The notes under the pieces are model-generated. The model worked only from the letters and a program-made list of their open reading frames with translations, did no database searches and was not told where the DNA came from. A program made the position numbers and the translations under genes. From IMG/VR virus record IMGVR_UViG_3300045004_000084: 57,435 bases of DNA. The stretch is one strand, 5' to 3'. This document shows positions 6,352 to 19,201 of the stretch, in pieces. This stretch comes from a virus. Taxonomy: Duplodnaviria > Heunggongvirae > Uroviricota > Caudoviricetes. The first letter of the stretch is position 1. Each line of letters opens with the position of its first letter.

Positions 6352-7011
6352 TCACAGGTCCAGGCCGCGCACCTGCACCTCGTCGTCCCGGGGCGCAGCA
6401 ACCCGGGCCGGTGCCGATCCGCCACCGCTGCCTGAGCCGCCGTTGGCCGAGTCGAGTACGGCCTGCGGGGCTCCGGCGTGCTTCGAGGCCGCGACCTCGG
6501 TGTAACCCTTGCCGGTCTTCTCGCTCATCATCTTCGCGGCGTAGTCCATCGCCGCACGCGGCGACGCGAACTGCTTTGCCTGGGTCTGACCGGCTGTGCC
6601 GATCCGGCCCCAGGTAGCGAAGAAGAACTTGCCCCGGACCTGGCAGGTCCAGAACTTCGAGTGGTTTCCGCTGACGTACTGAAAACAACGCTTCTCGATC
6701 ATGTCAAAGCCCTCCCGTTCGCCCGGCGGTGCGGACGGCAGCCAGCTCCAGTCCTCTGGTTGCAGCTCCATCTCACAGCCACCACAGTATAACCAACTGA
6801 AGTTGTCCGGATCGGTGGCCTCCGGGCGGACCCGAGCCCCTTGCCTCCGGCCCACCCAGACGCCCAGCTCCGAGTCAACTTTTCCTTCGATCCAGAACCC
6901 TTCTCCGCCGTAGGTGTAGTGTACCTCGACTCCGTAGAGTCGGTGATCCCGGTTGCAGTATCCGCAGTGGGCGCGCTTCATCAGGATGCCGTACGGTACC
7001 TGACCGTCCAT
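6352..7011 (-). CDS. WGR-domain protein with N-terminal Cys (Zn) domain and C-terminal RGLDL motif
   Basis: GNHSKFWTCQV...TWGRIGTAGQ...EKTGKGY is the WGR consensus; CGYC...CGGC at the N-terminus; SD AGGAGG. Confidence 0.8.
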   Translation of the reverse strand: MDGQVPYGILMKRAHCGYCNRDHRLYGVEVHYTYGGEGFWIEGKVDSELGVWVGRRQGARVRPEATDPDNFSWLYCGGCEMELQPEDWSWLPSAPPGEREGFDMIEKRCFQYVSGNHSKFWTCQVRGKFFFATWGRIGTAGQTQAKQFASPRAAMDYAAKMMSEKTGKGYTEVAASKHAGAPQAVLDSANGGSGSGGGSAPARVAAPRDDEVQVRGLDL

Positions 7012-7023
7012 GACGACCTCCTG

Positions 7024-7554
7024 TCAGATGTGCCAGCGGCAATGGACTGCCTCGATCATGTACTGGTGAACGGTCGGGAGGATCTTGAAGCTCTTCTTTT
7101 GCGCTTCTTCGAGAGTCACCCACTTCACGGCGTGGTGGGCGTCCCCTTCGAGCTTCAGCTCCTCCTTGTTGGAGAAGAGGATGTACACGAACGCCAGGTG
7201 CTTGTGGCCCGGTAGCGGCGGGAAGGCGTGCATGTCCACGGCGAAGGGAGTGTACAAAACCCGGGTCTCGTGCTCCCCGTTGTCGACGACGGCCATCCGC
7301 AGCAGGCTGGTGACACGCTGCTGTTCGGTCGTCTGGAACACCGAGTAGTCTTGTAGGTGGCGCAGGCCGGTCTCTTCCTCGACCTCGCGCTTGAGAGCCT
7401 TGTCGGTGTCCTCTCCGATTTCGACGTGGCCGCCCGGAGGCAGCCAGCACCCGAGTTTCTTGTGGTCCACCATGGCGACGGCCGCCATCCGGGGGTGGAC
7501 GATGAAGGCGGAGACCACGAAGTCCAGTTCGGCGAACAGGTGCGGCACGGTCAT
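7024..7554 (-). CDS. NUDIX hydrolase
   Basis: Nudix box GGHVEIGEDTDKALKREVEEETGL; ATGA coupling. Confidence 0.9.
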   Translation of the reverse strand: MTVPHLFAELDFVVSAFIVHPRMAAVAMVDHKKLGCWLPPGGHVEIGEDTDKALKREVEEETGLRHLQDYSVFQTTEQQRVTSLLRMAVVDNGEHETRVLYTPFAVDMHAFPPLPGHKHLAFVYILFSNKEELKLEGDAHHAVKWVTLEEAQKKSFKILPTVHQYMIEAVHCRWHI

Positions 7555-7829
7555 TCCTCCGGTGGCGAGAAAACTTGATCGTCGGGAGCCTGCATCAGCT
7601 CCCGCACGGTATCGAGGATCTCTTTTTCGGAGAACATAGTGGCGACGTCGTCCGGCAGCGAGCAGCACGCCGCGTAGTTTTCCAGGGCGGCGCCGGTACC
7701 GTCGATCTCTCCGATCAGGCCCTCGATGTCGTCTTCGGCCTCCCACTGTTCTATCTTGGCCCGGACCGCCTTGCGGAACAGCTCCACAATGCGGTCCTTG
7801 TGGGCCTCCAGCGCCTCACGATTCGTCAT
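7551..7829 (-). CDS. Hypothetical protein (92 aa)
   Basis: MTNREALEAHKD...; overlaps flanking genes as in an operon. Confidence 0.6.
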   Translation of the reverse strand: MTNREALEAHKDRIVELFRKAVRAKIEQWEAEDDIEGLIGEIDGTGAALENYAACCSLPDDVATMFSEKEILDTVRELMQAPDDQVFSPPEE

Positions 7830-8214
7830 CGTCTTCCTCCTCCTCGTCGTCGTCCCCTTCCTCATCTTCGTCGTCGTCGCGGTCGGGGAAGAGTTCGTCT
7901 GCCGCCGCAGTCAGGGTGTCCCAGTTGACGCCCAGCGTAGCGTCGTGGTTGCGATCAACGAAGTCGAGCACCTCGGCGGCCTGCGCGTCGTCCAAGCCCG
8001 GGCACACGCTCTGCACGTCGCCGACGCTCCACTTGAGCGCGATCGTGTACTCTTCGTCCCCGTCGACGGGTTCGATCTCGTCCAGCTTGGCCTTGATGGC
8101 CCGCTGGACTTTCATGATCTTGTTGGTCATGCCCTTCGGTATCCGCGAGTCGTCGCAGATGAGTTGGAGGTCGTTGAGTAGCTTGCGAATCTCCTCGATC
8201 TCTGTCGTTGTCAT
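7816..8214 (-). CDS. Hypothetical phage protein with W..DV...L....A.EVL......HDA..G.NWD motif and acidic tail
   Basis: SD GGAG; motif recalled from small phage/mobile-element proteins; D/E-rich C-terminus. Confidence 0.65.
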   Translation of the reverse strand: MTTTEIEEIRKLLNDLQLICDDSRIPKGMTNKIMKVQRAIKAKLDEIEPVDGDEEYTIALKWSVGDVQSVCPGLDDAQAAEVLDFVDRNHDATLGVNWDTLTAAADELFPDRDDDEDEEGDDDEEEEDDDES

Positions 8215-17479: not shown

Positions 17480-17544
17480 GTCGTTTCTCCAGAATTATTT
17501 ACTCGCTGGCTCTTCAGCGTAACTGGTTGAACGGTCTTATGGAA

Positions 17545-17568
17545 GGGCCGGGGCGTACGCCCCGGCCC
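17545..17568 (-). terminator. GC-rich hairpin after the AAA ATPase gene
   Basis: GGGCCGGGGC/GCCCCGGCCC stem with GTAC loop; weak U-tract. Confidence 0.45.
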
Positions 17569-17584
17569 GCTGACTGGCCGTTGG

Positions 17585-19201
17585 TCAGTTGTTCTTCGGG
17601 TCGAACGGCAGGTCGAGGTCCAGGGCGCGGCCGCCGCCGTCCTTCGATCCTTTCACCCGGCGGTTGGAAGAGACGCTGCGGGCACGGTCCTTCCCGAACT
17701 TCCGGATCTCCTCGATGTTCTCGGGATCGACCTTCACGACCGGAACGATGTCCTCGAGGGCCGCGACGAGCTGAGTTGCCGTCGGGATGCCACGGCTGGT
17801 CTGATCGGCGCTGTACGCAGTGAATCGGGCCGCCGATATCGCCTGCTCGATCTCCGCTCCGACGTAGTCGCGGCTCTTCGAGACGAGCTGCTTCCAGTCG
17901 TCTTTCCCGTACACCGACGGGTCGATGCGGCGCTTCCGCATGTGGATCTCGAAGATCGCCTTCCGCTCTGCGTCGGTAGGCGTATCGACGAAGAAAATTT
18001 CGTCGAATCGACCCTTGCGGAGCAGCTCCGGCGGCATGCCCTTGATGCGGTTCATGGTGAGCACCACGAACGTCTTGTTTTTCTTCGACGACAGCCAGGT
18101 CAGGAGCTGCCCGAAGACGCGCTTGGTCACGCCGCTGTCGCCGGTGCCGTCGATGGCCCCGCCGAGCACCTTGTCGGCTTCGTCGATGAGCAGCACACAG
18201 CCGCCCAGCGCGTCCGCCGTCTGGATGGTCTCGCGGGTTCGCCGCTCGGACTCGCCCACGAGGCTGTTGAACACGGCGTCGAAGTTGAACGTCACCCGGG
18301 GCAGACGCAGCTCACGGGCGATGACGTCGGCCGCGATCGACTTGCCGGTGCCCGGCACGCCGATCATCACGATGCCCTTCGGGAAGTCCAGCCCCAACGA
18401 TTCGGCCTCGGGCTCGTACGCCACCTTCCGCTCGTTCAGCCACGTCTTGAGCTCGTCGTACCCGCCCAGCTCGTTGCCGCCGATGATGTCCTTCTTCGGG
18501 ACGTAGCTGAGCACCTCGGACTTCTGGAGCAGGCGGCCCTTCTCCATCTCGATGGTGTCGATGATCTCCGGCGTGATTCCGCCGTGGCGGACGATGCATT
18601 CGGCCAGCGCGTCCGAGGCGTCCACGGTCGTCAGGCCCGACAGGGCCGTCGCGATCTGGTACCGGAGCGAGTCCGAGCACTGCTTCTTGGTGGGGTCGGA
18701 GATCGACATCCGCACCCCCTCGAAGATCCCCATCAGGTGCTGGTGGCTCGGCAGCGGGTAGATGAGCTGCTTCATGTACGGCAGCAGGTCCTGGTTCATC
18801 GCCGTGCTCGGCGTGAGCAGGATGACCGGACGGCGGTTCTTCTTCGTGTTGAGCGCCTGCCGCTGGATCAGCCCCTTGATGGCGGAGACGGGGCTTGGAT
18901 TCTGCATCAGCTCGTAGTGCGGGTCCCGCATCATGATGATGGTGTTCTGGTCGAACTGCGCGGGAACCGGGATCGACTCGATCGCCTCGGTCAGGTTGAT
19001 GTGCTTGTCGCTGCCGTTCCATCCGTGGACGCAGTCCCAGACCGCAAAGCTGTACCCGAGCTCCTTCGCGATCTTTTTGAGGGACTCCTCGGCCGCTCCG
19101 TTCTGCCCGCCGACGACCAGTTGGACACACTGTACACCGGCGCGGATGTAAAGGGTGATCTGGTCTTCGACTTCCTTGATGTCCTTGAAATTGTTCGTCA
19201 T
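17585..19201 (-). CDS. AAA+ ATPase, Ycf46-like (inactive N-terminal module plus active AAA domain)
   Basis: Walker A GVPGTGKS, Walker B VLLIDEADK, SRH TMNRIKGMPPELLRKGRFDEIFFVDTP; tail RALDLDLPF. Confidence 0.9.
   Translation of the reverse strand: MTNNFKDIKEVEDQITLYIRAGVQCVQLVVGGQNGAAEESLKKIAKELGYSFAVWDCVHGWNGSDKHINLTEAIESIPVPAQFDQNTIIMMRDPHYELMQNPSPVSAIKGLIQRQALNTKKNRRPVILLTPSTAMNQDLLPYMKQLIYPLPSHQHLMGIFEGVRMSISDPTKKQCSDSLRYQIATALSGLTTVDASDALAECIVRHGGITPEIIDTIEMEKGRLLQKSEVLSYVPKKDIIGGNELGGYDELKTWLNERKVAYEPEAESLGLDFPKGIVMIGVPGTGKSIAADVIARELRLPRVTFNFDAVFNSLVGESERRTRETIQTADALGGCVLLIDEADKVLGGAIDGTGDSGVTKRVFGQLLTWLSSKKNKTFVVLTMNRIKGMPPELLRKGRFDEIFFVDTPTDAERKAIFEIHMRKRRIDPSVYGKDDWKQLVSKSRDYVGAEIEQAISAARFTAYSADQTSRGIPTATQLVAALEDIVPVVKVDPENIEEIRKFGKDRARSVSSNRRVKGSKDGGGRALDLDLPFDPKNN

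Follow-up and report, generated by a model that had tools for sequence, protein, structure and literature searches.

Examining a 57,435-nucleotide stretch of a Caudoviricetes virus genome (IMG/VR record IMGVR_UViG_3300045004_000084; the whole of it is called the window here), we found that unrelated proteins encoded around a gene for an AAA+ ATPase share a short C-terminal tail, typically RGLDL. The genes of this region all lie on the minus strand, and those bearing the tail are the following (aa, amino acids):

6352-7011, minus strand: WGR protein, 219 aa, ending ...VQVRGLDL-stop (RGLDL codons at 6355-6369).
14053-14592, minus strand: 179-aa client protein, ending ...VQQRGLDL-stop (RGLDL codons at 14056-14070).
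14589-14858, minus strand: 89-aa client protein, ending ...NRPGIDL-stop (RPGIDL codons at 14592-14609).
16310-17479, minus strand: DUF3150 protein, 389 aa, ending ...AYGQFMRGLDL-stop (RGLDL codons at 16313-16327).
17585-19201, minus strand: AAA+ ATPase, 538 aa, ending ...GGGRALDLDLPFDPKNN-stop (internal RALDL codons at 17615-17629, followed by DLPFDPKNN).

These gene ends bear out what an earlier note on this DNA had read from the letters alone: three non-homologous proteins end exactly in RGLDL, a fourth ends in RPGIDL, and the ATPase carries RALDL in its tail, nine residues before its C-terminal end. The differing codons quoted for the three RGLDL ends are likewise as described (CGC GGC CTG GAC CTG; CGG GGG CTT GAT CTG; CGC GGC CTC GAC CTG). 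The motif is enriched at C-termini over chance. In a crude call of 62 genes, from which the 89-aa gene was absent, three ends match R-x(1,2)-[LI]-D-[LI], compared with a mean of 0.0076 after within-protein residue shuffling, and none of 20000 shuffles reached three. A looser pattern, [LIVM][DE][LIVM], revealed no further plausible gene in the window, the sole other open reading frame (ORF) of at least 40 aa with such an end being a 45-aa antisense ORF.

All four genes that end in the tail read GA(C/T)CTGTGA at their ends, and for three of these the GTG within CTGTGA could serve as an in-frame start of the next gene. The repeated element could then be a DNA-level signal for translational coupling or re-initiation, with a stop codon overlapping a GTG start and the peptide as a by-product. 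However, no overlapping start follows the DUF3150 end, and the peptide is retained in orthologs from metagenomic contigs in which codons differ, stops are TAG or TAA, and gaps separate the genes; the end in L004, for example, is TTG GAC ATT TAA, and that in L003 is CTC GAC CTG TAG. ATPase homologs with the same peptide end also occur in loci ranging from 34% to 68% guanine plus cytosine (GC). We give the DNA-level explanation practically no weight, as on sequence grounds it is excluded, being already contradicted by the ortholog ends. The conservation is thus at the peptide level, as the earlier note had held: orthologs with as little as 32 to 49% identity retain the tail, while codons, stop codons, and downstream spacing differ. 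Homologs without the tail, which the earlier note would have taken as refuting its proposal, are not seen at the level of orthologs: those of every bearer keep it.

Among the clients, the WGR protein contains a WGR domain (PF05406) at residues 113-174, with 5.6e-18 and 65.3 bits against a gathering score of 22. Its layout is a Cys-rich N-terminal part, the WGR domain, a Gly/Ser linker, and the RGLDL tail. An ortholog with 71% identity (P0169) keeps the end ...DDEVQVRGLDL and differs in the Gly/Ser linker, a relative with 40% identity in L006 ends ...RYLDLDD, and remote WGR proteins stop directly after the domain. A WGR protein also follows directly after a distant DUF3150 homolog on an unrelated short contig (that of P0168), and the WGR gene of L006 (10727-11098) lies near the ATPase module; WGR looks like a recurrent accessory of the tail system. 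Residues 1-100 of the window protein hold two Cys pairs (CGYC ... CGGC), conserved in the 71% ortholog, that may form a zinc ribbon. The 179-aa protein has no match in Pfam, PHROG, or PADLOC. The nine members of its family share 49 to 80% identity, and all end R-[GA]-[LMI]-D-L, with R175, D178, and L179 invariant. For the 89-aa protein, which has no Pfam or PHROG match, the orthologs end RPGIDI in L001 (89% identity) and RPGIQL in L003 (48% identity).

The DUF3150 protein, encoded next to the ATPase in the window module, belongs to its family (PF11348) with 1.5e-11 and 44.6 bits against a gathering score of 24.9. Fourteen homologs, with 89% down to 32% identity, end in RGLDL, RGLDM, RGLDI, MSLDI, RSITL, or RHLDLD, and a profile search of 1.84 billion representatives found that members of the wider family typically end ...FG..R.[ILV][DE][LIV]. 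In an alignment of 51 diverse DUF3150 members with 27% mean identity, only 8 columns reach 90% conservation or more, R385 among them. By these alignments, the tail is ancestral in the DUF3150 family. On a separate short metagenome contig, a DUF3150 homolog ending ...LRGIDL also adjoins an AAA gene. The AlphaFold2 model of the protein has a mean predicted local distance difference test score (pLDDT) of 85 and consists mainly of helices plus a small sheet; the final three residues score below 50. A fold search with this model against the PDB gave nothing significant, and against AFDB clusters it gave only DUF3150 or unnamed proteins. No match to DUF3150 was found by tblastn in GenBank phages or PLSDB plasmids.

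The ATPase matches Pfam AAA (4e-26) and phrog_8638 (6e-110) and is a classic-clade AAA+ protein (PF00004; 92.4 bits against a cut-off of 21.2) with GVPGTGKS and LLIDEADK in its second module (D2). Walker motifs occur only in D2; residues 1-230 lack a Walker A motif, and Pfam finds a single AAA domain. PADLOC returned only generic AAA matches (IetA, TRIP13), again on D2. Its AlphaFold2 model, built from a 66-sequence alignment, has a mean pLDDT of 90.6, with residues 519-538 below 50. In a Foldseek search of the PDB, the model aligned with the D1-D2 modules of p97, Cdc48, and Rix7 over ~560 columns (E ~1e-21; template modeling score, 0.59-0.65), residues 1-230 aligning by fold with D1 of p97/Rix7, as expected of a tandem (type II) AAA+ architecture. 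It does not belong to the CDC48/p97 family proper (TIGR01243), scoring 103.8 bits against a cut-off of 802.65 and over D2 only, and it lacks an extra N-terminal domain of the p97 type. As modeled, it is a p97/Cdc48-like tandem AAA+ protein with a degenerate D1, a predicted active D2, and no p97-type N domain.

Single-protein queries of IMG/VR gave no close relatives, and an alignment query was needed, which retrieved 80 loci. Across these loci, R-x-[LIV]-D-[LIF]-COOH is the usual C-terminus of the ATPase family, most homologs ending exactly in [RK]-x-[LIV]-D-[LIF] (GRAIDL, GRVLDL, GRKIDL, GRALDL, PRDLDL, IRKLDI, RRVLDI, and others). The window's own ATPase lineage adds a short extension after the motif, in which F/M-x-D-P-N is conserved, and R525, D528, L529, and F533 are invariant among close relatives. 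One subgroup ends instead in an acidic run plus Leu (DEDDL or EEEDL; L027, L029, L032, L036, L040, and others). A few genes downstream in the acidic-tail loci lies a protein of ~1090 aa whose end, ...DDLFD or ...DELFD, is possibly another variant of the tail. Since most ATPase homologs end in the motif, the clients in the window carry a copy of what is the canonical C-terminus of the ATPase family. The tail is older than this phage, with the ATPase family and DUF3150 as its putative prototype.

Relatives of the window module carry the tail on still other proteins. Further unrelated bearers include a 322-aa protein in L003 (RPGLDL), a 380-aa protein in L006 (RTLDLD), proteins of 289 aa and 61 aa in the complete phage G004, and three proteins in L056 that end RWEILDL, RFDLLDL, and RLEILDL beside an ATPase ending PRDLDL. 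Comparison of these ends indicates that tail variants change together inside a genome. In L006 the forms are all R-x-[LI]-D-L-D (ATPase, RVIDLD; DUF3150, RHLDLD; WGR, RYLDLDD; 380-aa protein, RTLDLD), in L018 the ATPase and DUF3150 share R-x-L-S, and in L025 the ATPase and two neighbors share R-V-I-R-R. Similarity of ATPase tails to other ORF ends is higher within than between loci (permutation p ~5e-5), a value partly driven by composition and spurious ORFs.

The tail has three features of a short linear docking motif: it is a conserved short peptide, it lies in a region that is disordered in the models, and it occurs on non-homologous proteins, with a common partner that is only predicted. 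The WGR, 89-aa, and ATPase tails are preceded by Gly/Ser-rich or low-complexity linkers, and because the tails are disordered and sit on flexible linkers, they have the properties expected of such a motif. Our preferred explanation, which we hold with moderate confidence, is that R-x-(L/I)-D-(L/I)-COOH serves as a short linear motif for docking, copied from the tail of the ATPase and addressed to a predicted common partner. As its prototype we propose the C-terminus of the tandem, Cdc48/p97-like AAA+ family that occurs in phages and mobile elements, together with that of the often-adjacent DUF3150. In the phage clade of the window, probably one infecting Planctomycetota, the tail would have been copied onto at least three more early proteins, namely the WGR protein, which is putatively nucleic acid binding, and the 179-aa and 89-aa proteins. 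The bearers would insert the Arg, two hydrophobic residues, Asp, and the free carboxylate (except the ATPase, whose copy is internal) into one common pocket and would assemble around, or compete for, the same machine. We infer a single receptor for all bearers. Of the tagging or docking system proposed in the earlier note, the short-linear-motif behavior tied to an AAA+ module, the disordered and Gly/Ser-rich linkers, and the recurrence on unrelated proteins stand. The idea of the ATPase as a simple hub that reads a client tag does not, as R-x-L-D-L-COOH is the canonical end of the ATPase family itself.

Several observations weigh against the docking motif as we propose it. In the AlphaFold2 monomer of the ATPase, the protein's own tail is undocked and no pocket shows within one protomer, and neither the ATPase nor the DUF3150 tail docks in cis in the monomer models, both being left disordered. 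In the window clade, the ATPase motif is internal and followed by DLPFDPKNN; not every bearer can therefore need a free carboxylate. The test of co-variation within genomes is noisy, with composition and ancestry as confounders, and individual examples alone are used here. Finally, in a 192-kb relative (G006) the tail is confined to DUF3150 and one other protein. How many clients carry it therefore depends on the clade, and the expansion to several of them is particular to the clade of the window.

An extension of this explanation, doubtful in our view, is that the tail is the plug of an undescribed protein-remodeling machine found across phages and mobile elements. The ATPase hexamer would use its own tails between protomers or on D1, and DUF3150 and a changing set of clients, in the window the WGR protein and two orphans, would copy the tail to dock. 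If so, a phage could rewire the targets of the machine simply by moving five codons between gene ends.

The ends of the WGR and DUF3150 genes are identical in 17 of 18 nucleotides, which suggests copying by recombination. This near identity also fits a very different account, in which the tails are independent structural caps or recombination remnants of gene ends that share no partner and no function. Yet copying accounts for the origin of the tails and not for their retention: the Arg, the Asp, and the last Leu are invariant while the bodies of the proteins diverge to 49% identity in the 179-aa family or 32% in DUF3150, and the tails are disordered and unpacked in the models. We regard the absence of a common partner as very improbable.

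Since the ATPase is a classic-clade AAA+ protein with the fold of p97/Cdc48, an unfoldase family, the tail could also be a degron, resembling ssrA and recognized at the axial pore or entry loops of the hexamer, in which case its bearers would be substrates for timed unfolding, and perhaps destruction, during infection. The client tags sit at the extreme C-terminus on flexible linkers, as ssrA does, and recognition by the pore would need the hexamer, which fits the undocked tail in the monomer model. On the other hand, the ATPase of most lineages has the tag at its own end and would be its own substrate, DUF3150 is tagged as well although it is a conserved partner in the module, and no protease partner is seen in the window. 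These points make a degron unlikely. Docking could lead to assembly, regulation, or unfolding.

The other genes of the module in the window, all without the tail, are the following:

14855-15127, minus strand: "RASHVEP" protein, 90 aa, a conserved module protein without the tail.
15201-15827, minus strand: DUF2997 protein, 208 aa (Pfam DUF2997, 2.7e-14, at residues 150-195).
15844-16224, minus strand: DUF1257 (Ycf35-like) protein, 126 aa (Pfam DUF1257, 2.9e-07), starting MSHKTT.
19275-20006, minus strand: 243-aa conserved protein directly upstream of the ATPase, without the tail or a known family, found at the same position in 18 loci.

Contigs with a DUF3150 homolog have a common gene order of the 243-aa protein, AAA, DUF3150, DUF1257, the DUF2997 protein, and a protein of ~90 aa in which RASxVEP is invariant, followed by small ORFs, GP88, a GHKL-type ATPase, NUDIX, WGR, and GNAT. 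The eleven orthologs of the RASHVEP protein have a mean column identity of 51%, with R36, S38, E41, P42, W51, D54, R69, E76, and W79 invariant. The DUF2997 protein is split into two genes in L004, L010, L013, and L017. By eye, its N-terminal ~148 residues are DUF1257-like (VWDDFREGWG versus EFDNYGGNWG), and single ORFs in L022 and L025 match our own profiles of both DUF1257 and DUF2997, suggesting fusion. The DUF1257 proteins of the module start almost invariably with M-S-H-x-T, and proteins at the same gene position in L063, L065, and L051 start MPCDT or MACET and end ...HSHDGGQTW; the His or Cys at position 3 of these sequences suggests a functional, perhaps metal-binding, N-terminus. Rhizobium phage L338C and Rhodobacter phage RcTiptonus have a form of the module that adjoins helicase and polymerase genes. 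It holds AAA, a protein of 212-230 aa with the end ...RRAVKL or ...RKITI, DUF1257, DUF2997, and a distant homolog of the RASHVEP protein, which in L338C occupies the corresponding gene position.

Other observations concern the surroundings of the module. A split gene at 12688-14056 (minus strand) breaks near 13405, where the ortholog of a single 346-aa gene of L001 lies in two frames: the window reads gacgggCtacgtc and L001 reads gacgggtacgtc, one extra C causing a frameshift that may stem from an error in sequencing, mark a pseudogene, or be programmed. An assignment of this gene as ParB-like was dropped, since neither piece matched in Pfam. Between the tail genes of the virion and the ATPase module, at 23162-27772 and 28294-29826 (minus strand), lie three glycosyltransferase genes (GT1, GT2-like, and GT9 heptosyltransferase-like), an endonuclease VII gene, and a collagen-repeat gene. 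The nearest Atlas clusters of the RASHVEP protein are mainly from Planctomycetota and Uroviricota, and the GC content of the window is 62%, which together suggest that the window derives from a phage or prophage of a planctomycete.

The earlier note had named DUF1257 and DUF2997 as possible partners in reading the tail. Two complete phages, G003 and G004, do not readily fit this: their ATPases end GRVLDL and GRKIDL, and neither has a DUF1257 or DUF2997 match at E <=0.01, nor any match to our own DUF3150 profile. Either the small module proteins are not the receptor or they have diverged beyond detection in these phages, and the result points to the ATPase itself or to an unrecognized partner. 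Co-folding of residues 340-389 of the DUF3150 protein with the DUF1257, DUF2997, and RASHVEP proteins, each with its own alignment, gave interaction prediction scores from aligned errors (ipSAE) of 0.07 and 0.00 against a mark of 0.32, which speaks neither for nor against binding. Because the ATPase is the sole component seen in every tailed system and tail variants co-vary inside genomes, comparison of the sequences favors a phage-encoded receptor with the ATPase ring as the first candidate. Our tentative first choice for its location is the ATPase hexamer itself, with a site between protomers or on D1 and clients that mimic the ATPase tail. A receptor among the small module proteins (RASHVEP, DUF1257, or DUF2997) is rather unlikely, and one on the body of DUF3150 more unlikely still; the rest of our expectation, about as large as that for the ATPase, goes to a phage protein not recognized here. 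The acidic-tail clade of ATPases has conserved Lys or Arg at D1 positions 23, 103, 141, 159, and 170 and the RxLDL class has none there; conserved in the latter are E220, E317, R180, and R422. These possibly charge-complementary columns are a lead and not evidence, because the acidic class looks like one clade.

A receptor supplied by the host must be weighed as well, since the tail could attach phage proteins to a multi-pocketed host partner, for example the beta sliding clamp, a protease, or a chaperone ring. Phage T4 offers a precedent of interchangeable C-terminal tails on unrelated proteins (PMC2988020), and the tail described here is likewise hydrophobic-acidic; helicase, primase, and polymerase genes neighbor the module in several phages, and a recurrent client has a WGR domain. 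A clamp in this role would have to be the host's, as no PF02768 match was found in five related phage records. For the gp45-type clamp (PF02916), the lack of a match in the same number of related records is uninformative, since the control matched nothing anywhere. A phage-encoded clamp as the hub is thus unlikely. However, the defining Gln of the clamp motif QL[SD]LF is absent from the tail, which has a near-invariant Arg nearby instead, and the form of the tail shifts sharply among phage lineages (RxLDL, RVIRR, DEDDL), which is a better fit to a fast-evolving receptor encoded by the phage. Mimicry of a host hub is accordingly improbable in our estimate.

If the docking motif is as we propose, it marks the members of an uncharacterized machine that is common in phages, with relatives of its module genes also occurring in cyanobacteria and plastids (ycf35). 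It would allow the clients of this machine to be listed in any genome from sequence only, and the five-residue peptide would be a handle for pull-down experiments toward a first function for DUF3150, DUF1257, DUF2997, and the AAA+ family. Our literature search turned up nothing published about the tail, DUF3150, or the phage module. Because the clients include DNA-binding proteins and the module is often located in replication regions, nucleoprotein complexes may be what the machine acts on as the phage takes over its host. Shared C-terminal docking peptides organize several well-understood machines, including clamp tool-belts, proteasome activators, and Hsp70/Hsp90 co-chaperones, and the system of the window can be set beside these and others.

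To our knowledge, no function has been assigned to Ycf46, Ycf35 (DUF1257), or DUF2997. The window resembles the cyanobacterial and plastid set in holding Pfam members of both DUF1257 and DUF2997, and in cyanobacteria DUF2997 and Ycf35 belong to one cluster (PMC4284462). With p97/Cdc48, the nearest solved fold, the ATPase shares a disordered C-terminal tail, although it has no N domain, its D1 lacks Walker A, and its motif is unrelated. The tail of p97 is a disordered docking tail that binds PUB and PUL domains and has trans-acting residues in D2, and p97 recruits many unrelated cofactors through short motifs.

Short C-terminal peptides also address unrelated proteins to an AAA+ machine in the case of ssrA tags, MuA-type recognition by ClpX, and the tethering tail of SspB. 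The peptides there are LAA or RRKKAI compared with RxLDL here, whose end, [LI]-D-[LI], is not the L-A-A-COOH of the ssrA-like ClpX C-motif 1, and we know of no case in which ClpX itself ends in the tag. For an AAA+ ring that shares its tail with unrelated proteins, the closest precedent would be the HbYX/GQYL tails (PAN, Rpt, archaeal Cdc48, Blm10, Mpa, and Bpa), in which an AAA+ ring and proteins that are not ATPases have in common a tail that plugs the same pockets of a partner ring. The ends described here differ from the Hydrophobic-Tyr-X pattern, being L-D-L or I-D-L with Asp at the penultimate position of the Tyr, and no proteasome or other protease ring was found here.

The closest documented precedent in a phage would be T4, where gp43, gp33, and gp55 dock on the gp45 clamp through similar, interchangeable hydrophobic-acidic peptides at their C-termini, joined by flexible linkers that diverge in sequence (Geiduschek and Kassavetis 2010, PMC2988020). 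The bacterial beta-clamp motif (Q-L-[SD]-L-F or Q-L-x-L-x-L) is not found in our tails, which have no conserved Gln and an invariant Arg instead. Both systems place short hydrophobic-acidic peptides at the C-termini of unrelated phage proteins, and in T4 these are known to share one multivalent hub. In contrast to the T4 tails, those described here have a near-invariant Arg and no aromatic residue, and their putative prototype bearer is itself an AAA+ protein of the Cdc48 type.

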